This document shows positions 16,671 to 63,994 of a stretch of DNA of 64,000 bases, piece by piece. The stretch's first letter is position 1. Each line of letters begins with the position of its first letter. The notes below the pieces were generated by a model. It was given only the letters and a program-made list of their open reading frames with translations. It searched no databases and was not told the DNA's origin. The position numbers and the translations under genes are program-made. The DNA is from a virus: IMG/VR virus record IMGVR_UViG_3300030387_000070, one strand, 5' to 3'.

Positions 16671-18884
16671 ATGAGAACGCTTTTGCTGTTCCGTGGAGCA
16701 CCAGGTTGTGGGAAGTCCACCTATATTAAAGAGCATAATCTTGAGCAGTATGTATTGAATGCTGATACACTTCGACTTATGTGCCAGAGCGCACAGGAAA
16801 CACCTGCCGGGCGGATGGAGATCTCTCCGCAGAATGATGATGTTGTATGGGAGATGCTTTTCAAACTGCTTGAGGTGCGTATGAGTCATGGCGAGTTTAC
16901 CGTGATTGATGCAACGAATTCCAAGACGGTCGAAATGAATCGTTATAAGAATCTTGCAAAACAGTATCGTTATCGGATGTATGTTATTGACATGACGGAC
17001 CTTCCGATTGAGGAATGCAAACGAAGAAACGCTCAGAGAGAATGGCTGAATCGAGTTCCTGAAGCGGCCATTGATAAGATGTACGCTCGGTTTGCTACTC
17101 AAAAAGTTCCTTCTGGTGTGACAGTTCTTCCTTCTACTACGGATGTGATGTCCGATTTGAACTACTGTCCGAATGACTTCAACCAGTGGAAGAAGATCCA
17201 TATCATCGGTGATGTTCATGGCTGTTATACTTGTTTAAGTGAATACCTTGGTGAGATGAAGGACGACGAACTGTATATCTTCGTTGGTGATTATCTCGAT
17301 CGTGGCATCGAAAACGTTGAGGTATTCAAGTTCTTGTGTGATGTTGTAAATAACAACCGCAAGAATGTGATCCTTTTGGAGGGCAATCATGAGTGTTGGC
17401 TAAACAAGTGGGGGCATGATGAACCGGTTCAGAGTGAAGAGTTTGCAAACTACACTCGTCCGCAGCTCTTTAAAGCCGGTATTGACAAGAACACTGCTCG
17501 TAAGATCTATTCCAGAGTAGGCCAATGTGCCTACTTTGAGTATGATGGGAAGCGGTATTTCGTGAGCCACGGTGGTTTGAGTTATCTGCCTTATTTTCTT
17601 CCTTTCGTATCTGCTGATCAGATGATTAAAGGTGTAGGTCGCTATCCTGATATGCTAACCGTGGCTGAGTCTTGGGAAAAATCGATGCCGGATAGCTACA
17701 TTCAGATCTTCGGCCATCGAAATGTGCAGGATGTTCCTATTGATATGGGGCATCGGTGCTACAATCTCGAAGGAAAAATCGAGTTTGGTGGATATCTCCG
17801 TTGCGTTGAACTTGAACACGGTCAGTCAATCAAATGTGTAGAAACCAAGAACGATGTGTTCCGAAAAGAGGAGCCAAAGACTGAAACTGCCGTTGAAATG
17901 AAAACTGAGTTCGATAACGCAGAACTTGTTAGTAAGATGCGTCAAAGCAAATATGTGTTTGAGAAGCGATTCGGAGATATTTCTTCTTTCAACTTCTCTC
18001 GTGAAGCATTTTATAAGAAGCACTGGGATGAGGTTTCTACCAAAGCAAGGGGATTGTTCATTAACACAAAGACGAATAAGATTGTAGCTCGAAGCTATGA
18101 TAAGTTCTTTGCGGTTGATGAGCGGAATGAAACGAGAATTGGAAACCTACAGAACACTTTGAAGTTCCCAGTGACTGCATATCTAAAAGAGAACGGATTT
18201 CTTGGTATCATTTCGTATGATGCAGAACAGGATGGTCTGTTCATTGCAAGTAAATCCACTCCTGAAGGGCCTTTTGCAGATATGTTCCGAAAGATTATTA
18301 TGGATACTACTTCCGATGAAGATCGTAAGAATCTGAAGGAGGTTGCCAAGGAGCATGGCTCCATCATCTTTGAGGTTATTGATCCTGTGAATGATGCTCA
18401 TATCATAGAATACAAGAAACCGCACATTGTTTTGCTGGATGTTGTTGCAAACGATATGAATTTCAGTGTGATAGATTATGATGACTTGAAACGTGTCGCA
18501 GAAAAGTGTCATCTGCAGATTAAGGAGAAGGTTAAAACCTTTGAGAACTGGAGTGAATTCTATCCTTGGTATGAGGAAGTCATGAATGAGAACTATCTGT
18601 ACCATGACATCGAGCATGTTGAAGGCTTTGTTCTGAGAGATAGTAACAACTTTATGTTCAAGTTAAAGCTTCCTTATTATAAGCATTGGAAGTTCCTGCG
18701 TGGTGTTATGAAGAGCGTCCAGAAACGTGGCTATTACGAAAACACCGCCAAGCTGTTTACGGCTGAAGATAATTTGTTCTATGGTTGGATGCGTGAGCAA
18801 CGAGAGAAAGATCAAGAGGCGTTCAGCAAGAAGGGAATCATTCAGCTGCGAAATGAGTTCTATGCAAGTCAGCAGAAGAGTTGA
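16671..18884 (+). CDS. polynucleotide kinase-phosphatase-ligase (Pnkp-like RNA repair enzyme): P-loop kinase, calcineurin-like phosphoesterase and nucleotidyltransferase (ligase-like) domains
   Basis: Walker A GAPGCGKST at the N-terminus; metallophosphoesterase motifs GDVHG, GDYLDRG and GNHE; C-terminal nucleotidyltransferase motifs KENG (KxNG), EGFVLR and KLKLPYYK. Confidence 0.65.
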   Translation: MRTLLLFRGAPGCGKSTYIKEHNLEQYVLNADTLRLMCQSAQETPAGRMEISPQNDDVVWEMLFKLLEVRMSHGEFTVIDATNSKTVEMNRYKNLAKQYRYRMYVIDMTDLPIEECKRRNAQREWLNRVPEAAIDKMYARFATQKVPSGVTVLPSTTDVMSDLNYCPNDFNQWKKIHIIGDVHGCYTCLSEYLGEMKDDELYIFVGDYLDRGIENVEVFKFLCDVVNNNRKNVILLEGNHECWLNKWGHDEPVQSEEFANYTRPQLFKAGIDKNTARKIYSRVGQCAYFEYDGKRYFVSHGGLSYLPYFLPFVSADQMIKGVGRYPDMLTVAESWEKSMPDSYIQIFGHRNVQDVPIDMGHRCYNLEGKIEFGGYLRCVELEHGQSIKCVETKNDVFRKEEPKTETAVEMKTEFDNAELVSKMRQSKYVFEKRFGDISSFNFSREAFYKKHWDEVSTKARGLFINTKTNKIVARSYDKFFAVDERNETRIGNLQNTLKFPVTAYLKENGFLGIISYDAEQDGLFIASKSTPEGPFADMFRKIIMDTTSDEDRKNLKEVAKEHGSIIFEVIDPVNDAHIIEYKKPHIVLLDVVANDMNFSVIDYDDLKRVAEKCHLQIKEKVKTFENWSEFYPWYEEVMNENYLYHDIEHVEGFVLRDSNNFMFKLKLPYYKHWKFLRGVMKSVQKRGYYENTAKLFTAEDNLFYGWMREQREKDQEAFSKKGIIQLRNEFYASQQKS

Positions 18885-19001: not shown

Positions 19002-19086
19002 GCCAAGGTGCTGCAAATGGGAGACAGGGCGAGCCCAAACCTCGCTGTGGAAACACATGCGGTTTCGAATACCGTCCTTGGCACCA
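19002..19086 (+). tRNA. tRNA-Leu(CAA), type II, CCA encoded
   Basis: Hand-folded: acceptor GCCAAGG/CCTTGGC, U8, T-loop TTCGAAT, long variable arm, anticodon loop CCCAAAC with an unusual C33, discriminator A73. Confidence 0.55.
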
Positions 19087-19114
19087 GATAATTTTATGAA
19101 GAAAGGATGATTGC

Positions 19115-19798
19115 ATGGTTAATAGGGCAGAAGATCATATTGGTGATGTCTTTGATTTGTTTGAGGTGATTGATGTTATTCGAGATGAAAATAATATTCC
19201 ATCTTACAAATGTCGATGTAAAGAATGTGGATGGACAGGGCTAAAAAATATAGCTCAGGCGAGAGCGGTTAAAGTGTGTCGGCATAAACAATCGAGTGGC
19301 GATTATAGAAATTTTTCTACACGGTGGAAAAACAAAAGAATCGGACGAATCTTTCATGGAATGAAAGCAAGATGCTATGATGTTGATGATAAAAACTATA
19401 TAACGTATGGCATGAAAGGAATTTGTGTTTATCAAGAATGGTTGGATAATCCAAAGTCATTTGAAGAGTGGTCGTTGAAAAATGGATACAAAGATAGTTT
19501 GACAATCGATAGAATTGATTCGACAAAAGATTACTGTCCTGATAATTGCAGATGGATATCATTGGAAGATAATTCAAAATATAAATCCACAACTCGAATG
19601 TTAGAAGTAGATGGTGAAATACATACGGGACGTGATTGGGCGGCAGAATTAGGGCTTGGAACAAACACGATAAATAAATATGTAAGAAGATACGGAGAAG
19701 ATAATACAAAACAATTTATAAGAAGAGTATTAAAGGACCCGGATAAAGTGAATTCTCGACAAGGGAAACAAACTATCTATAATCTTTACATGAACTAA
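19115..19798 (+). CDS. HNH homing endonuclease (HNH_3-type)
   Basis: HNH signature IDRIDSTKDYCPDNCRWISLEDN; low GC relative to neighbours; sits between tRNA genes. Confidence 0.55.
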   Translation: MVNRAEDHIGDVFDLFEVIDVIRDENNIPSYKCRCKECGWTGLKNIAQARAVKVCRHKQSSGDYRNFSTRWKNKRIGRIFHGMKARCYDVDDKNYITYGMKGICVYQEWLDNPKSFEEWSLKNGYKDSLTIDRIDSTKDYCPDNCRWISLEDNSKYKSTTRMLEVDGEIHTGRDWAAELGLGTNTINKYVRRYGEDNTKQFIRRVLKDPDKVNSRQGKQTIYNLYMN

Positions 19799-19805
19799 AT
19801 TGAAA

Positions 19806-19847
19806 TGGCCCAGTGTAAAAACTGAGTACATTGGGCCAAATATTTAT
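19806..19847 (+). terminator. rho-independent terminator (TGGCCCA...TGGGCCA plus AT-rich tail)
   Basis: 7-bp inverted repeat at 19806-19812 and 19832-19838 after the HNH gene. Confidence 0.45.
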
Positions 19848-19851
19848 ATGA

Positions 19852-19935
19852 GCACCCGTGGTGAAATTGGCAACCACGATGGACTTAAAATCCATTCCCG
19901 GTAACGGGTTGCGAGTCCGAGTCTCGCCGGGTGCA
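19852..19935 (+). tRNA. tRNA-Leu(TAA), type II
   Basis: Acceptor GCACCCG/CGGGTGC, anticodon loop CTTAAAA, 15-nt variable arm, A73. Confidence 0.65.
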
Positions 19936-19940
19936 TATTT

Positions 19941-20016
19941 CTGGGCGTAGCGAAGTTGGCATCGCACCTGTTTTGGGAACAGGGGACCGCAAGTTCAAAT
20001 CTTGTCGCTCAGACCA
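19941..20016 (+). tRNA. tRNA-Pro(TGG), CCA encoded
   Basis: Anticodon loop TTTGGGA, T-loop TTCAAAT, acceptor with one G-U pair, ends ACCA. Confidence 0.65.
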
Positions 20017-20023
20017 CTACGAG

Positions 20024-20111
20024 GATTCGCCAAGTTGGTAAGGCAGCGGAATTTGACTCCGCCAGCGCTGAACAAGCGGTCACAGGTTCGAGTCCTGTAT
20101 CCTCGGCTTAT
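20024..20111 (+). tRNA. anomalous type-II tRNA with anticodon TTG (Ser-like G73 body)
   Basis: Acceptor CGAGGAT/ATCCTCG, U8, D-arm GCC-AAGTTGGTAA-GGC, anticodon arm GCGGA-ATTTGAC-TCCGC, 19-nt variable arm, T-loop TTCGAGT, discriminator G. Confidence 0.45.
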
Positions 20112-20113
20112 AT

Positions 20114-20198
20114 GCGGGTATGGTGTAACTGGCAGCCACGTCAGATTTAGGATCTGATGCCGAAAGGCGTGAGGGATCGTGCCCCTCTACCCGTACCA
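20114..20198 (+). tRNA. tRNA-Leu(TAG), type II, CCA encoded
   Basis: Anticodon arm TCAGA-TTTAGGA-TCTGA, 13-nt variable arm, A73, CCA present. Confidence 0.6.
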
Positions 20199-20298
20199 CG
20201 GTCATAGAATGGTTGCGTACCGTTTGTTGATCTCCTTTACTATTATTCCCGGCTCGCCAGTGATGGTGCAGTAGTGCTTTGTAAGCTGGGTTTTCATG

Positions 20299-20372
20299 CA
20301 GCGGTCGTACAACGGCTAGTACATCAGCCTTCCAAGCTGAGGATGAGGTTTCGACTACCTTTCGCTGCTCCA
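20299..20372 (+). tRNA. tRNA-Gly(TCC), CCA encoded
   Basis: Acceptor GCAGCGG/TCGCTGC, anticodon loop CTTCCAA, T-loop TTCGACT, ends TCCA. Confidence 0.6.
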
Positions 20373-20560
20373 ATCTTGTATGGGTAGGATCTTTAGCGGT
20401 CAGATCCAGCCGCGCCTGTGCAAGATACCACCCCGAAAGGGGCGAGATATAGGAAATGTGCATCGCTGTTATTCCTTCCTCGTCTATATGATATAGATGC
20501 AATAGTGTTTTATAAGGAAGGTCCCCAGTTGAATAGTTGCAGCTGTTTGACTGGTAATAT

Positions 20561-20634
20561 GGGATAGTAGCTCAGTTGGTCAGAGCTGGCGGCTCATAAC
20601 CGCTTGGTCGCGAGTTCAAATCTTGCCTGTCCCA
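20561..20634 (+). tRNA. tRNA-Met(CAT), elongator-like
   Basis: Acceptor GGGATAG, D-arm GCTC-AGTTGGTCA-GAGC, anticodon loop CTCATAA, T-loop TTCAAAT; the 1-72 pair is formed, so not an initiator. Confidence 0.6.
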
Positions 20635-20742
20635 CTAACCCGATAGGGTGAATACATAGAATTTGCTAGAAATTTTGTTTTATGGGCGAATAAATAATAT
20701 GACGTTGATACGTCTATTATTTTTCGCTAATTTTTAAAGTTT

Positions 20743-33323: not shown

Positions 33324-36300
33324 ATGCCAAGTAGTCTACACACACACTCGAATTACAGTCTACTAGATGGGTACTCTTCTCCTGAAGAAAATCTAAAAAG
33401 AGCATCAGAACTTGGTTTGAAAGCCATTGCCATTACGGAACATGGTGAGGTAACAAGCTGGCCGTACTATTCTGAACTAAAAGGCAAGTATCCGAATGTC
33501 AAACTTCTTTATGGTATCGAGGCATACGAGTGCGAAGATAGGGAAGTCAAGGACAAGAATAGTAAATATTGGCATTTAATCATTATTGCCAAGAACGAAG
33601 CTGGTCGTCAGGCAGTCAATCGCTTATCTACACTCGGTCATCTTCATGGCTTTTACAGCCGTCCTCGTATCACAAAAGAGGATATCGCTAAGGAAGATAC
33701 GAATAATTTGATTATCCTGTCTGCTTGTTTGGCGAGTAGGCTGTCAAGAACGGATGATTATGACACTTGTGTCAAGCTGGTTCAAGAGTATAAGAGCTTA
33801 TTCCCTCACTATTATCTTGAGGTTCAGGCTCATGCAAACAGTGAACAAGCAAAATATAATCAGAAAATCATGCGGTTGGCAAACGATACTCATACAAAAG
33901 TAGTCGTCACAAACGATGTTCATGCTGCTACCAAAGAGGATCTTTATTATCAAGATTATTTCCTTCGTATCGCTCATGATACGGAAACCGCCACAGAAAT
34001 CTATGAAGGGTGCTACTTCATGTCTCGTGATGAGCAGCATAGAGCCCTTGATAATCAGATTGGATACGATGCGGCAGAATGGTGTATCAATAATACTGAC
34101 GAGGTTGCTGATCTGTGTGATGATGTGGATATGCCTTGGCATGAACCGGAACTTCCCAAAATTGAGATTCCGCCACAGTATTCTAATTCGGCAGCTTATC
34201 TGAAAGACCTTGTAAAAGAGGGATGTAAGAAACGTAGCATTGATAAGTTTGATGTAGAAAAGCAGAAAATCTATCGAAAACGTGTTGATGATGAGCTGTT
34301 TGTCATTGAGAAGAAAGACTTCTGTGACTACTTTTTGATTCTGGTTGATTACATCAACTGGTGTAAGAAAAATGATGTCATTGTTGGCCCTGGTCGTGGT
34401 TCTGCTGCTGGTTCTCTTGTATGTTACCTGATTGGCATTACGCAGCTTGATTCCATCAAGTATGAACTTGACTTCGGACGATTCCTTACCATTGAGCGAA
34501 AAGACCTTCCTGACGTTGATGTTGATGTCAGTGACCGTGCCAAGGTTGTCGAGTATCTGACACAGAAGTATGGAGAAGATCGAGTAGTTCAGGTTATGAA
34601 CATCGTGTACACTACTCCGGTTACTTCAATTCAAGATGTTGGTAAGGTGCTCGGTTTCCCGTATGCCGAGATAAGAAAAATCAGTGAGAAGTTCGTTCAA
34701 AAGACATGGAAAGATTGCCTTGAAGCCAACACAGAAGTAGCTGAGAATCCAAAATATAAGGAACTACTTGATATTGCAAGTCATATCAATGGTCGCCCAC
34801 GAGGATATGGTATCCATGCTGGCGGTGTTATTGTTTGCCGACATCCTTATTACGAGTATATCGGTATCCGGCATGGTACTGACGGAGAGCACGTTATTTC
34901 CGTTGATAAGGTGATGGACGAGAAGATTGGACTTGTTAAGTTTGATATTCTTGGTGTTGCGTCGCTGGTTGCCATTGATGAAGCGAAGCGTGAGGATAAT
35001 ATTCCAGACTGGGAAATTGATATCAACAATCCTGAATTTGAAAACGACAAGGCAACTTACGATTTGATTTGCTCCGGTAAGACAGACAATCTATTCCAGA
35101 TTGAATCGTCCGGCATGAAAGATCTGGTTGCGCAGCTTCAACCTAGGTCGATTGAAGAACTATCCGCTTTGATTGCTCTTTATCGCCCTGATGCAATGCC
35201 GTCCATTCCTACATACGTTGACTGCAAGTATCATCCCGAACACATTCATTATTTCCATCCTGATATGGAACCAATTTTCCGCAGTACCTATGGCGTGAAC
35301 ATCTATCAGGAACAGAGTATGAAGCTCACAAAGGTCTTTGGTGGCCGAAGCGATGCTGGTGCTGATAGAATGCGTAAGTGCTTGGCAAAGAAAAAACCTG
35401 AGAAGGTCAAGGAAGAGGTAGAACTTCTTCACGATGAAATTCTTGCAAATGGATACGATAAAGCAACCGCTGAGTATATTTGTAACGAGTTGTCAACGAA
35501 GGGCGGCTATGGTTTCAATAAGTGTATTTCTGGCAACACGAAGTTGTGGAGAATGAGAAGTGGTCGGTTTGAGCCTACTGTTGCAGAAATGTACAAGATT
35601 CGCAATGATAGGAAGTTTGCTATCTTGACAAATCACACACATCTTAGGGACAAATATAGACGATACGGTTACGGTAGTGCGTTGTCAATGTGTGATGATG
35701 GACGCATTCGGATGAATAAAATTATTGATATCAAGTATTCTGGATATCGAATGCTGTATCGTGTAACAACTGAGACCGGTGCGACCATTGAATGTACAGA
35801 TAATCATAAATTCCCGACAACTGATGGCATTAAGTTGCTTTCTGATATGAGAATTGGTGATGAGTTATATGAGATTGGTGCTTATGAGGTTTGCAGAAAC
35901 AAGTATAATCTGACGGATGGAAATTTCGAAAGCAATTTGCCGAAGCCGGGACAAATGGGGTTCCAGACGAAGGAATTTAGTGCGAATCGTCTGTTTGAAG
36001 AGACGAAAGAAAAGAATAGACTGAAAAGAAGCCCATGTGAAATTTGCGGTAGAGAATATTCCGAAGATGCTCGTTTTGAAGTACACCACAAAGATTTTGA
36101 CCATACGCATAATGTACCTGATAACTATACTTGGTGCTGTGCATCGTGTCACAAGAAACTTCATTACGCTCACGGGCGAGTAAAACAGTATGAAAAGGGC
36201 ATCCCGTCAAAGACCGCTAAGATTATTTCTATTGAGGAAATTGGTTTTGATGATGTCTATGATGTGACAATGGATGCTCCGAATCACAATTTTGTAGTGT

Positions 36301-37340
36301 CAACTGGTATTGTAACTTGCAACTCTCATTCACAAGCCTATGCTGACATCTGTCTCCAGACTGCATATTTGAAAGCCCACCATCCGCTTGCATTCTTTAA
36401 GGCTATGCTGAACCTGAATAAAGCAAAGGTCGGCAAGGTCAACAAGATTATGGTGGATGCACGCAGCTTTGATATTCAGATTCTTCCGCCGAGTATCAAT
36501 CGTTCCGGCATGGACTTTACTGTGTCAAATGGTAAAATCCTGTTTGGCTTATCTGCTATCGGTGGTATTGGCGATACGCTTGCTGAAACTATCATTGCAG
36601 AACGAGATAGAAATGGAAAATTTAAGGGACTTGATGATTTCACGAGTCGTGTTCGTGCAACGAAGGCGCAGATTATTGCATTGGTTAAATCCGGTGCGAT
36701 TCCTACAAAGAACAAACGAATATTCTTGGAAAAGTACATTACCAGCGGTCTGGAACAATCTGAGTTTAAGCCAGTCAGTACACTTCCTACCAAGGCAGTT
36801 TTGCTGAGTAAGTGGGGTATTGATACAGAGCATTATAAGGTTGGTAAAAAGGTTGACAAAGAAACCGTCTTACGGATCTATAATGAAAAGCGCCGTGTCG
36901 TACATGAAACCGAGAAGCTGAAAAAGAAAGAAGCGTATATGGACGAGCAGACCACAAAATATCTACAAGATGAAGAACTTTGGGAGTTCCAGACTTTGCA
37001 GACCTTTATCAGTGACCCGAATCCTTTCGAGAAGGCATTTACTTATATCAAGGATTTCTCTGAAATCGAAGAAGGTGATTCTTGTGTACTGGTTGGTATT
37101 ATCGCAAAGATTCAGAAGAAGAAAACGAAGACTGGTATGCAGTTTGCATTTGTAAATCTGTATTCTGGCGATGGTATTATTGAGCTGACCGTATGGCCGA
37201 GAGTCTTGTCGGATTATCAGGATTTGATTGTAAAGGGAAGTCAGGTGGCTGTGCTTGGAAAGAAGGAAGATGAATCGCACGTTATTGCAAGCAACTTCAA
37301 ACCTTACAAGCAGTGGTTGCATGATAGAGAGATAGCGTAA
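33324..37340 (+). CDS. dnaE: DNA polymerase III alpha (DnaE-family) with in-frame intein
   Basis: PHP domain HTHSNYSLLDG at the N-terminus; the GYGFNK-SHSQAYA catalytic motif is interrupted by an insert. Confidence 0.75.
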   Translation: MPSSLHTHSNYSLLDGYSSPEENLKRASELGLKAIAITEHGEVTSWPYYSELKGKYPNVKLLYGIEAYECEDREVKDKNSKYWHLIIIAKNEAGRQAVNRLSTLGHLHGFYSRPRITKEDIAKEDTNNLIILSACLASRLSRTDDYDTCVKLVQEYKSLFPHYYLEVQAHANSEQAKYNQKIMRLANDTHTKVVVTNDVHAATKEDLYYQDYFLRIAHDTETATEIYEGCYFMSRDEQHRALDNQIGYDAAEWCINNTDEVADLCDDVDMPWHEPELPKIEIPPQYSNSAAYLKDLVKEGCKKRSIDKFDVEKQKIYRKRVDDELFVIEKKDFCDYFLILVDYINWCKKNDVIVGPGRGSAAGSLVCYLIGITQLDSIKYELDFGRFLTIERKDLPDVDVDVSDRAKVVEYLTQKYGEDRVVQVMNIVYTTPVTSIQDVGKVLGFPYAEIRKISEKFVQKTWKDCLEANTEVAENPKYKELLDIASHINGRPRGYGIHAGGVIVCRHPYYEYIGIRHGTDGEHVISVDKVMDEKIGLVKFDILGVASLVAIDEAKREDNIPDWEIDINNPEFENDKATYDLICSGKTDNLFQIESSGMKDLVAQLQPRSIEELSALIALYRPDAMPSIPTYVDCKYHPEHIHYFHPDMEPIFRSTYGVNIYQEQSMKLTKVFGGRSDAGADRMRKCLAKKKPEKVKEEVELLHDEILANGYDKATAEYICNELSTKGGYGFNKCISGNTKLWRMRSGRFEPTVAEMYKIRNDRKFAILTNHTHLRDKYRRYGYGSALSMCDDGRIRMNKIIDIKYSGYRMLYRVTTETGATIECTDNHKFPTTDGIKLLSDMRIGDELYEIGAYEVCRNKYNLTDGNFESNLPKPGQMGFQTKEFSANRLFEETKEKNRLKRSPCEICGREYSEDARFEVHHKDFDHTHNVPDNYTWCCASCHKKLHYAHGRVKQYEKGIPSKTAKIISIEEIGFDDVYDVTMDAPNHNFVVSTGIVTCNSHSQAYADICLQTAYLKAHHPLAFFKAMLNLNKAKVGKVNKIMVDARSFDIQILPPSINRSGMDFTVSNGKILFGLSAIGGIGDTLAETIIAERDRNGKFKGLDDFTSRVRATKAQIIALVKSGAIPTKNKRIFLEKYITSGLEQSEFKPVSTLPTKAVLLSKWGIDTEHYKVGKKVDKETVLRIYNEKRRVVHETEKLKKKEAYMDEQTTKYLQDEELWEFQTLQTFISDPNPFEKAFTYIKDFSEIEEGDSCVLVGIIAKIQKKKTKTGMQFAFVNLYSGDGIIELTVWPRVLSDYQDLIVKGSQVAVLGKKEDESHVIASNFKPYKQWLHDREIA
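35523..36323 (+). mobile_element. intein (267 aa) with HNH homing-endonuclease domain inside dnaE
   Basis: The insert starts with Cys after GYGFNK and ends ...IVTCN before Ser (SHSQAYA); internal HNH motif CEICG...HHKDFDHTHN...CCASCH. Confidence 0.7.
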
Positions 37341-37352
37341 GAGGGTTATAAA

Positions 37353-59982: not shown

Positions 59983-60810
59983 ATGATTATTGATTGCAAA
60001 TCTATTGCACAAGATATCAAAGATAAAATCAAGAATATTATCGCAGAGGCCGATTACACTCCTGTTTTACATATTTATCAAGTAGGGGATAATCCTGCGT
60101 CTAATGCTTATATTAGAGGTAAATTGCGTGACTGTGAAGAGGTGGGGATCGAAGTAGAACTTATTAAACTGCCAGAAAATATTACTGAAGATGAATTGAA
60201 TAACAAGATCTTAGAAGATTATAATTGGGAATATGTGAACGGTATCATTGTTCAGCTTCCGTTGCCAAAACATATCAATCCTAAAAATATCTACATTCCA
60301 GACGCAGTTGATGTTGATGGATTTAATTCTACATCCAAATTTCAGCCTTGCACTCCGCTGGGCGTTATGAAGATTTTTGACTCCATCGGTTACGATCTGG
60401 ATGGCAAGAATGTGCTTGTGTGTGGTCAATCTGATATCGTAGGTCGTCCGTTGGTCAATATGCTGATTAAGCGGCACTGTAATGTAATCTCTGTGAATAG
60501 TACGGGTTCCGCCATGAAAGCCACTGCCATCGGATTTGGAATAGTCAATGTTATTATTTCCGCCGTTGGTAAGCGTGACTTTATTTCGACGTTTGATTTA
60601 TTTGATACGGATGTTTGCATCGACGTTGGTATCAACTATGACGAGAACGGAAAGCAGCACGGCGATTGTACTGATGCTGTTTATGATATGAAGGATGTCA
60701 AAGTAACACCTCGTATCGGCGGAGTTGGCCTTATGACTCGCGCTATGCTCTTATATAATGTATGTGTGGCGAAATACGGGGCAGAGAAGATGGAAGAGGT
60801 GATTGAATGA
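59983..60810 (+). CDS. folD: bifunctional methylenetetrahydrofolate dehydrogenase/cyclohydrolase FolD
   Basis: RBS AAAGGAGG upstream; FolD pattern VQLPLPKHI...DAVDVDGF...QPCTPLGV...GKNVLVCGQSDIVGRPL...NVISVNSTGS. Confidence 0.8.
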   Translation: MIIDCKSIAQDIKDKIKNIIAEADYTPVLHIYQVGDNPASNAYIRGKLRDCEEVGIEVELIKLPENITEDELNNKILEDYNWEYVNGIIVQLPLPKHINPKNIYIPDAVDVDGFNSTSKFQPCTPLGVMKIFDSIGYDLDGKNVLVCGQSDIVGRPLVNMLIKRHCNVISVNSTGSAMKATAIGFGIVNVIISAVGKRDFISTFDLFDTDVCIDVGINYDENGKQHGDCTDAVYDMKDVKVTPRIGGVGLMTRAMLLYNVCVAKYGAEKMEEVIE

Positions 60811-61435: not shown

Positions 61436-63994
61436 TTACTGGATGCCGGTAACAGGATAATCCTGTGCTTCCACGGCCTTCTTCAGCACCTCATCGTCCA
61501 CTTCGGCGTTCAGGGTAACGATGGCGGTACCGGCTTCGTGGCTGACAACAGCCTCGTCCACCTGCGGCAGAGCCTCCAAAGCCTTCTTGACGCGGGCTTC
61601 ACAGTGATGGCACATCATACCTTCTACGGTCAGGGTCTTTTTCATAGCAATCTTCTCCTTGTAAGTTGTATCTTCCTCCGCTGCGGGCTGCACAAGGGCA
61701 GCGGGCAGGGCAGGGACGTGTTTGGGCGGGTGGTCATGTTTTGCGCTGTGCAGGTCAAACAGGTTCAGCCGCAAGGCGTTGCTCACCACGCAGAAGCTGG
61801 AAAGGCTCATGGCAGCTGCGCCGAACATGGGGTTCAGCGTCAGTCCCAATGGAATGAACACACCGGCTGCCAGCGGGATGCCGATGATGTTATAGATGAA
61901 CGCCCAGAACAGGTTTTCGTGGATGTTGCGCAGGGCAGCACGGCTCAGCCGGATGGCGGCGGGCACGTCCGACAGCTTGGAGTTCATCAGTACCACGTCT
62001 GCAGCGTCAATGGCTACGTCTGTGCCTGCGCCAATGGCAATGCCGGTGTCAGCGCGGGTCAGGGCAGGAGCATCGTTGATGCCGTCGCCCACCATAGCTA
62101 CCTTGCCGTACTTTTGCAGCTGCCGGATGACGGCCTCCTTGCCCTCGGGCAGCACTCCCGCGATCACCTCGTCCACCCCGGCCTGTCGGCCAATGGCCTC
62201 GGCAGTGCGCTGGTTGTCGCCGGTCAGCATCACGACCCGGATACCCATATTTCGCAGCTCCCGGATGGCCTGCGGGCTGTCCTCCTTGATGGTATCTGCC
62301 ACTGCGATAACGCCCAGCAAACGACCTGCGCCACCAAAGAACAGGGGCGTCTTACCCTGTGCAGCCAGCGCGGCGGCTTCGGCTTGCAGCGCAGCGGGGA
62401 TGGCGACCTTTGCGCCGATAAAGGCCGCATTGCCGCCAAAGATCTCCTTGCCTTCCAGCGTGGCGGTAAGGCCGTTGCCCGGCAGGGCGGTAAAATCGGT
62501 AACAGAGGGCAGCTCCAGCTGCTTTTCCTCCGCATAGGCCAGCACTGCCCGCGCCAACGGGTGCTCGCTGCGGCCCTCCAGCGCGGCGGCCAGCGTGAGC
62601 AGCTCGGTCTCAGTCACGCCCGCAGCGGGCAGAAGGTCGGTGACGGTAGGTTCGCCGCAGGTGATTGTGCCGGTCTTGTCCAGCGCTACGATGCGGGTGC
62701 GTCCGGCTTCTTCCAGCGCCGCAGCGGTCTTGAACAGGATGCCGTTCTTCGCACCAAGGCCGTTGCCCACCATAATAGCCACCGGCGTTGCCAGACCCAG
62801 CGCACAGGGGCAGCTGATGACCAGCACCGAGATGCCCCGCGCCAGCGCGTAGCCCACATCCCGCCCCAGCAGCAGCCAGACAAGGGTGGTGACCACCGCA
62901 ATGCTGATGACCGCAGGCACGAAAAAGCCGGATACGGTATCTGCGATCTTTGCAATGGGGGCTTTGGTGGCGGCGGCATCGCTGACCATGCGGATGATCT
63001 GCGCCAGCGTGGTGTCCTCGCCTACGCGGGTAGCGCGGCACTGCAAATAGCCGGACTGGTTGGTGGTGGCGGCGCTTACCTTATCGCCCACGGCCTTGTC
63101 CACCGGGATGCTTTCGCCGGTCAGGGCGCTCTCGTTCACGGCGCTGCTGCCCTCCAGCACAATGCCGTCCACCGGGATGTTCTCGCCCGGACGCACCACA
63201 AAGATGTCCTCTTTCTGCACCTGCTCAATGGGCACGGTCACCTCGGCACCGTCCCGCAGCAGGGTGGCGGTTTTGGGGGCTAGCTTCATCAGGCTTTTGA
63301 GCGCATCGGTGGTCTTGCCCTTGGAGCGTGCCTCCAGCATTTTGCCCACCGTGATGAGGGTCAAAATCATGGCGGCAGACTCAAAATAGAACTCCATCAT
63401 GTAGTGCATGACTAGTTCCTCGTTGCCGTGTAGCTGCGCATCGGTCATGGCAAACAGGGCGTAGGTGCTCCATACAAAGCTTGCCATCGAGCCCATAGCC
63501 ACCAGCGTATCCATGTTGGGGGAGCGGTGCACCAGCCCCTTGAAGCCGTTGATGAAAAATTTCTGGTTGATCACCATCACGATGCCCGCCAGCAGCAGCT
63601 GTACCAGCCCCATGGCAATGTGGTTGCCGTCAAACCAGCGGGGCAGCGGCCAGCCCCACATCATGTGCCCCATGGAAAAGTACATCAGCACCAGCAAAAA
63701 GCCCAGCGAGGCGATAAGCCGCCGCTTTAGCTTGGGTGTTTCGTGGTCGGCCAGTGCGTCCAGCTCTGCGCTGGTACTGGCAGCGGCAGCAGCGGTCTTT
63801 TTAGGGCTTGCACCGTAACCGGCCTGCTCTACGGCACGGATAATGGCGGAATCTTCTGCTGTGCCCTCCACCCCCATGGAGTTTGTCAGCAGGCTTACCG
63901 AACAGCCGGTAACGCCCGGCACGCTCTTTACGGCCTTTTCTACCCGGGCAGAGCAGGCCGCGCAGCTCATGCCGGTAACGTTGAATTGTTCCAT
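61436..63994 (-). CDS. copA: copper-translocating P-type ATPase CopA (heavy-metal-binding domains at both termini)
   Basis: [13 protein letters not shown] and [12 protein letters not shown] metal-binding sites; CPC transduction motif [11 protein letters not shown]; DKTGT phosphorylation site; GDGINDAP; about 65% GC. Confidence 0.85.

Follow-up and report, generated by a model that had tools for sequence, protein, structure and literature searches.

The question raised by the IMG/VR virus record IMGVR_UViG_3300030387_000070 is what an in-frame insert is doing in the middle of its replicative DNA polymerase gene, and whether that insert still moves. The window, that is, the whole stretch of 64,000 nucleotides (nt) analysed here, carries at positions 33324-37340 an open reading frame (ORF) whose product was identified by Pfam and NCBIfam as a DnaE-type Pol III alpha subunit. 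The original prediction placed at 35523-36323 an insert of 267 amino acids (aa) with Cys first and Asn last before a Ser, and the in-frame translation agreed exactly. Judged by its sequence, the insert is an intein; chance is rejected, the profile scores and its exact absence in relatives being far beyond chance expectation. It is very likely an intein of class 1 that carries an HNH homing endonuclease in frame and sits in a phage DnaE-type replicative polymerase, and it looks intact and recently mobile, and is apparently active. The gene is divided as follows.

33324-37340, + strand: dnaE precursor ORF, 1338 aa plus stop codon, single and unbroken, with PHP, Pol III alpha core, fingers, intein, HhH and OB domains
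33324-35522, + strand: N-extein (aa 1-733), ending in STKGGYGFNK, delimited by alignment to 1071-aa intein-less alleles and by the DNA junction
35523-36323, + strand: intein, 267 aa, Cys1 to Asn267 (precursor residues 734-1000, between Lys733 and Ser1001)
36324-37340, + strand: C-extein, from Ser+1 (SHSQAYADICLQ...) to the stop codon

The insert starts with CISGNTKLW and ends with IVTCN, is preceded by GGYGFNK and followed by SHSQAYA, and contains CEICG...HHKDFDHTHN...CCASCHKKLH. A whole-protein search returned more than 100 clusters of 1071 aa (1338 minus 267), with aligned exteins 95-99% identical, which read GGYGFN[A/K]SHSQAYA unbroken and leave a clean 267-column gap in the alignment. Thus, the homologues lack the insert exactly, rather than aligning with it as a normal segment of DnaE. 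Among 55 close IMG/VR loci, 4 carried the 801-nt intein segment, 7 carried an intron described below and 44 were empty; together with L002 and L003, which come from other sources, this gave 46 empty alleles. The junction codons fix the boundaries of the 801-nt segment and leave no room to slide. When the polymerase was spliced in silico, it aligned without a gap across the junction to residues 697-921 of Thermus aquaticus (Taq) Pol III alpha (...NYGFNKSHAAAY...), the insertion point falling at the equivalents of Taq K815 and S816 in the fingers domain. The GYGFNK-SHS motif is therefore interrupted, as had been predicted, but it belongs to the fingers domain and not to the catalytic aspartate site, so that its description as an active-site motif needs correction. 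Contigs that are independent of one another and come from several samples carry the same insert (L005-L007, L042, L187, P0283/P0284), and an orthologous insert is present in L004, a phage 74% identical.

To place the splicing domain, the insert was compared with profiles, with its own family and with solved structures. Its parts are given below; the N-terminal lobe and the linker carry pLDDT (predicted local distance difference test) values from an AlphaFold2 (AF2) model.

35523-35876, + strand: N-terminal HINT lobe, intein aa 1-118, supported by pLDDT 96-98 within the lobe and by family conservation
35523-35525, + strand: Cys1 of block A, CISGNTKLW
35796-35798 and 35805-35807, + strand: Thr92 and His95 of block B, TDNH
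35877-36026, + strand: linker and helical region between the splicing lobe and the HNH module, aa 119-168, with a helix at 154-168; pLDDT 68-83, the least confident part of the model
36201-36323, + strand: C-terminal HINT lobe, aa 227-267
36261-36263 and 36285-36287, + strand: Asp247 and His255 of block F, VYDVTMDAPNHNFVV
36318-36320 and 36321-36323, + strand: Cys266 and Asn267 of block G, GIVTCN

Pfam Intein_splicing (PF14890) matched with 41.3 bits (cut-off 35.8, E 1.7e-10) and the intein N-terminal model TIGR01445 with 33.8 bits (cut-off 24.5). When 1.84 billion cluster representatives were searched exhaustively with HMMER, there were 2163 family matches at a threshold of E<=0.001; tightening it to E<=1e-10 left 717, and to E<=1e-30, 193 protein clusters. 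Most matches span all 267 residues at 36-56% identity. Among 113 family inteins the catalytic residues are kept almost throughout: Cys1, His95 and Asn267 in all 113, Thr92 and His255 in 112, and Asp247 in 103. Insertion sites and terminal residues were counted on the 142 matches with a readable C-terminal junction among the best 150, where the +1 residue was Ser in 138 and Cys in 2. The AF2 model, built on a 29-sequence family alignment, reached pLDDT 91.9 and showed two beta-rich lobes (1-118 and 227-267); an earlier run on a 5-sequence alignment (pLDDT 53.7) was discarded. Foldseek returned 46 matches in the PDB at E<=0.001, all of them inteins, with mini-inteins at the top (target template modelling score 0.7-0.84), and the best PDB sequence matches were the Ssp DnaB intein and DnaE inteins. 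The penultimate residue is Cys266, and the His common but not obligatory in class-1 block G is absent. The C-terminal block had been called atypical; Cys does replace the usual His, but this is not peculiar to the present copy, as the penultimate residue was Cys in 69, Ser in 65 and His in only 1 of the 142 matches, and Cys or Ser is thus the family norm. The linker region, for its part, may contact DNA.

The endonuclease module lies between the two lobes.

36036-36179, + strand: HNH module, aa 172-219, with Cys172-x2-Cys175, His188-His189, Asp191, Asn201, Cys206-x2-Cys209-His210 and His214

The HNH signature is complete and has two CxxC zinc ligand pairs (C172xxC175...H188H189...N201...C206xxC209H210...H214). 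Across the 113 family inteins Cys172, Cys175, His189, Asn201, Cys206, Cys209 and His210 are invariant or nearly so, and the last metal-ligand position, His214, is variable (H75, E28, D9). The AF2 model has a beta-beta-alpha unit at aa 185-216. PF01844 matched 23 of 29 relatives at E<=0.01, the best of them at 2.7e-8. Searched against the PDB, the family profile found the HNH domains of IscB (1e-4), McrA (4e-4) and a group II intron maturase.

Following established intein chemistry, translation would yield one 1338-aa precursor chain, in which a thioester would form between Cys1 and Lys-1 and the N-extein would be transferred to the Ser+1 hydroxyl. Cyclisation of Asn267 would then free the intein, and an O-to-N shift would rebuild the GYGFNK-SHS fingers motif, the product being a 1071-aa polymerase. 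Thr92 and His95 of block B and Asp247 and His255 of block F would assist, and the small Cys or Ser penultimate side chain would stand in for the usual His, as in split DnaE inteins. Either the freed intein or the precursor could then use its zinc-stabilised HNH module to nick or cut the intein-less dnaE of co-infecting phages near the insertion point, and recombinational repair off an intein-carrying genome would copy the intein along with about 180 nt of downstream extein.

Evidence on mobility came from comparison of the intein-carrying alleles, which revealed two intein lineages within the window's own phage species. The window intein shares 99.4-99.5% identity with its counterparts in L006 and L007, and the start of the C-extein has zero mismatches over 179 nt (L006) or 185 nt (L007), while 186-197 of 2199 nt, i.e., 8-9% of positions, differ in the N-exteins. 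Inteins of the second lineage (L005, L042) are 81-82% identical to that of the window over their first 684 nt, and the L005 exteins are about 91% identical. The intein tree is discordant with the host-gene tree. A near-identical intein with identical flanks, shared by genomes that agree at only about 91% of extein positions, argues for recent lateral transfer. Compared with the empty allele L002, the window is identical for 375 nt upstream and then shows 15 differences between -4 and +38, and the flank signature TCTCAYTCACAAGCCTATGCTGAY is private to intein-carrying alleles of the window's phage species. The flank is placed as follows.

36324-36347, + strand: 24-nt extein flank TCTCATTCACAAGCCTATGCTGAC, including a Val-to-Asp change, a probable co-conversion tract

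Together, these alleles point to recent homing with co-conversion. Between the window and L005 inteins, the proportion of changed nonsynonymous sites (pN) was 0.047 and that of synonymous sites (pS) 0.63, with dS about 1.4 and dN/dS 0.035; the HNH segment alone gave pN 0.042 and pS 0.70. Since pN is low against near-saturated synonymous sites, the intein is under strong purifying selection, which acts on both the splicing and the HNH modules.

Several points weigh against an intein that splices and homes as outlined above. Splicing itself, endonuclease activity and the target sequence are things that we infer. The penultimate His is missing, which is tolerated in other inteins but commonly slows Asn cyclisation (PMC4031507). 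The window sequence alone scored 18.5 bits with Pfam HNH over aa 172-214, under the gathering cut-off of 21.4; the HNH call of the original prediction, sound as to its motif residues, is therefore carried by the family profile. The intein is present in just 4 of the 55 close loci, and the exact cognate empty target (TTCAAYAAG^TCTCAYTCACAAGCC, within a reconstructed site ...GGTTTCAAYAAG^TCTCAYTCACAAGCC...) was not found among the 46 empty alleles, so that homing in the sampled population can only be presumed to be ongoing. The last two observations would also suit an intein that still splices but whose HNH module no longer serves homing, being either a decaying passenger or employed otherwise, e.g., in DNA binding; such an intein would persist by vertical descent, imprecise loss being destructive to the polymerase. 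That endonucleases do get lost in this family is shown by members of only 167-197 aa, and the variable His214 position fits as well. We nevertheless consider this improbable, because every core HNH residue is present and near-invariant, the HNH region shows the strong excess of pS over pN given above, and a 99.4% identical intein with identical flanks, despite exteins of about 91% identity, indicates recent lateral transfer.

Another explanation is a conditional intein, in which Cys266 and Cys1 would render splicing responsive to zinc or redox state and the state of the host cell would gate maturation of the polymerase. The penultimate Cys is consistent with this, as are the anaerobic NrdD and NrdG encoded by the phage, which suggest an anaerobic host, and for the Ssp DnaE intein both redox traps and inhibition by zinc are on record (title of PDB entry 3nzm; references in PMC4031507). 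However, the penultimate residue is Cys in 57 and Ser in 51 of the 113 family inteins, so the family does not require the thiol; regulation is speculative, and we regard this explanation as quite improbable. That the insert might be no intein at all, but a lineage-specific domain retained in the mature polymerase or an assembly chimera, is hardly credible. The full intein catalytic set is present at both junctions together with the HINT fold, a retained insert would break a fingers motif that is nearly universally contiguous, and the independent contigs from several samples and the orthologous copy in L004 already contradict it. A splicing intein with a homing HNH endonuclease thus remains the preferred reading. 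Inteins without the penultimate His do splice (Chen, Benner & Perler 2000; Sun et al. 2005; as cited in PMC4031507), and DnaE split inteins are among those that lack it (Sun et al. 2005, as cited in PMC4031507).

The insertion site had been described as exactly a recognised hotspot. In 127 of the 142 matches the intein is followed directly by SH[SA]xxY, usually after [YF]xFN[KRA], which is the site of the window; 11 were inserted one residue earlier (FN/[SC]xH, the slash marking the junction) and 2 at Y/SFN, the cyanobacterial site. The K/S site is thus heavily used in metagenomes, but the well-known split site lies 4 residues upstream, and the description is right only approximately. PolIII-alpha is among the most intein-rich bacterial proteins, with a 75-residue hot spot in the fingers domain that contains several sites, site a being the commonest and always split (PMC4760082), and the wild-type junction of the Npu and Ssp DnaE inteins is AEY/CFNK (PMC3759424). 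A word-indexed homologue search with the intein alone or with the 29-sequence profile returned just 4-6 short fragments, the family becoming visible only by exhaustive HMMER, and tblastn of the intein against 50,697 deposited phage genomes found a sole DnaE intein, in Gordonia phage Wojtek, and nothing closer. The family is thus large and little described, and barely represented among sequenced phage isolates.

Among known inteins, the cyanobacterial split DnaE inteins (Ssp/Npu, PolIII-alpha site a) share with the window intein the host protein, the fingers motif and class-1 chemistry with Cys1. They too lack the penultimate His, having Ala or Ser in its place; the aligned split intein 7qil ends in ...FIASN, i.e., with a penultimate Ser. 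Their blocks F and G (...HNF...G-I-A-S-N) resemble those of the window (...HNFVVSTGIVTCN), the structures 7qil, 2keq, 4kl5 and 1zd7 gave significant sequence and fold matches, and a few members of the window family sit at the very cyanobacterial site (SGRY/C...SN/SFNRSH; P0269, P0271). In contrast, the cyanobacterial inteins are encoded by two genes on cyanobacterial chromosomes, splice in trans and have no endonuclease, whereas the window intein is contiguous within the single ORF 33324-37340 of an uncultured phage of roughly 120-140 kb and has an HNH module. The cyanobacterial junction is Y/CFNK with Cys+1 (PMC3759424), and that of the window, FNK/SHS with Ser+1, lies 4 residues downstream. 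The window intein is therefore outside the split DnaE class on both criteria, namely separate genes and the Y/CFNKSH site. The best solved-structure match by both sequence and fold was the Ssp DnaB mini-intein (1mi8, 6frg), which has the same Cys1/Ser+1 pair; its host is the DnaB helicase, however, and its solved forms were engineered without the endonuclease, unlike the window intein.

In-frame HNH inteins have been known since 1997. They have been catalogued in actinobacteriophages, DNA polymerase genes included (bioRxiv 10.1101/2025.01.02.630785). The intein in the DnaE-like gp72 of Wojtek has the same order of HINT N-lobe, linker, HNH and HINT C-lobe as that of the window, in the same host gene and motif, with 28.5% identity over 97% of the window intein. 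It is inserted 2 residues upstream of the window site (YSF/.../NIAH), ends in His-Asn and is followed by Asn at +1, and the metagenomic clade of the window intein is a different and much larger one. Comparison of Wojtek gp72 (L001 718-4758) with Lambo gp77 (L188) showed Wojtek to be the sole intein carrier among the listed Lambovirus relatives. Its intein, unannotated in the record, lies between YSF and NIAHC with fixed boundaries, and since Asn, rather than Cys, Ser or Thr, occupies the +1 position, canonical splicing should be impossible.

The window intein is real and ordinary in kind, polymerase inteins, HNH inteins and inteins without the penultimate His all being documented already, and it does not overturn current understanding. 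It comes from an abundant lineage of uncultured phages, is intact and apparently active, and represents a large metagenomic family (the 193 clusters at E<=1e-30) nearly all at one DnaE site. As a compact Cys1/Ser+1 intein with Cys or Ser at the penultimate position, it is of possible interest for protein engineering. Alleles with the intein, alleles with an intron and two kinds of empty allele coexist at 89-98% nucleotide identity, which offers a system for studying homing, target-site escape and interference between intron and intein.

The intron is a 227-nt insert without an ORF and with an in-frame stop, present in 7 of the 55 close loci (L035, L037, L038, L039, L045, L050, L051).

L035 5192-5418: group I intron, within GGAT^TTAACAAG, in the Phe codon of GYGFNK

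Its site is 8 nt upstream of the intein insertion point, equivalent to about 35515/35516 in the window, which itself has no intron. Intron-bearing dnaE genes give truncated gene calls of 742 aa, and one of these proteins, P0275, was present on 69 contigs. Rfam did not detect the intron when three entire loci were scanned, and a search restricted to 281 nt gave a full-length match to RF00028 with 39.7 bits (gathering score 50) and E 5.5e-9. A copy is also present in the 74%-identical phage lineage (L185, L186), being 223 nt long in L185, with compensatory changes in P1 (exon GGAU/guide GUCC to GGGU/GCCC), P2, P3 and P8, which are good evidence that the intron is a functional ribozyme. A U-G wobble and a 5-bp P10 set the splice sites, and ligation gives GGA UUU AAC AAG, the same as in 13 empty alleles. 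The 3' end so placed is an A (...AUGAAGA/UUAAC; L035 5414-5423 and the L185 equivalent), and using the conserved G at -2 as the intron end would generate a stop codon. A 3'-terminal G is universal in group I introns, and this may be a natural group I intron without it. Separate translation of exon 2 from an ATG in the intron 3' end was considered and rejected, since the L185 lineage has ATA in place of that ATG. Scanning for the core motif to find further dnaE introns proved too generic, with dnaE in just 2 of 120 loci, both from the same phage group.

The 46 empty alleles fall into two kinds over the positions equivalent to 35514-35522 and 36324-36332 of the window. In 13 the sequence is GGA TTT AAC AAG TCA, identical to the ligated exons of the intron (type 1, GGATTTAACAAGTCACATTCTCAG), and in the other 33 it is GGN TTC AAC GCY AGY (type 2, GGTTTCAACGCCAGCCATTCTCAG); right at the insertion point, Ala takes the place of Lys, and Ser is encoded by AGY instead of TCN. 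This recoding of the majority allele would fit selection for endonuclease resistance. It is tempting to see in the GFNK/SHS stretch of dnaE a three-way contest between the HNH intein (AAG^TCT), the group I intron (GGAT^TT) and a recoded, resistant empty allele, although we hold this to be rather unlikely. Under such a contest the intron, itself without an endonuclease, may shield its carrier by disrupting the target, or may hitch-hike on breaks made by the HNH enzyme.

The neighbours of dnaE, all on the + strand, form a phage replication and nucleotide-metabolism module; synteny with L002 identified a RecJ-like DHH protein and a metallophosphatase, and further neighbours are a RecD2-like helicase, an ATP-dependent ligase, NrdD, NrdG and dUTPase. 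IMG/VR viral contigs of about 110-140 kb are the close relatives. Megablast of the dnaE gene against deposited phages found no near match, only one 60-nt match, and a scan of GTDB genomes found no close relative. In relatives a 77-aa Cys-rich ORF lies between dnaE and the RecD2-like helicase (L002 13216-13449; L035 6443-6676); it is absent from the window, where 12 nt (37341-37352) separate the two genes. In the intein-carrying relatives P0279 and P0280, a T run close to dnaE codon 11 contains one extra nucleotide (L187 2249-2290); this insertion was seen on 5 contigs, shortens the gene call to 1254-1255 aa and could be an assembly error or a genuine frameshift. These short calls were considered as a sign of a second intron, which was rejected once the frameshift was recognised as their cause.

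Elsewhere in the window, a fusion of polynucleotide kinase, phosphatase and T4-type RNA ligase (16671-18884) adjoins a cluster of 7 tRNA genes (19002-20635; Leu x3, Pro, Gln, Gly, Met), and the two together look like a tRNA repair module. The fusion gene has no intein, unlike an RNA-ligase-family gene upstream of the replication module in the sister phage L004 (positions 1-1733; 74% identical), where precomputed Pfam matches indicate a LAGLIDADG intein, a second intein in this phage group. At the right end, a copper/heavy-metal P-type ATPase gene (61436-63994, - strand) runs opposite to the otherwise one-directional phage module, with a FolD-like gene nearby (59983-60810, + strand). Some relatives are carried by contigs of 300-517 kb, and a prophage-host junction may lie inside the window.

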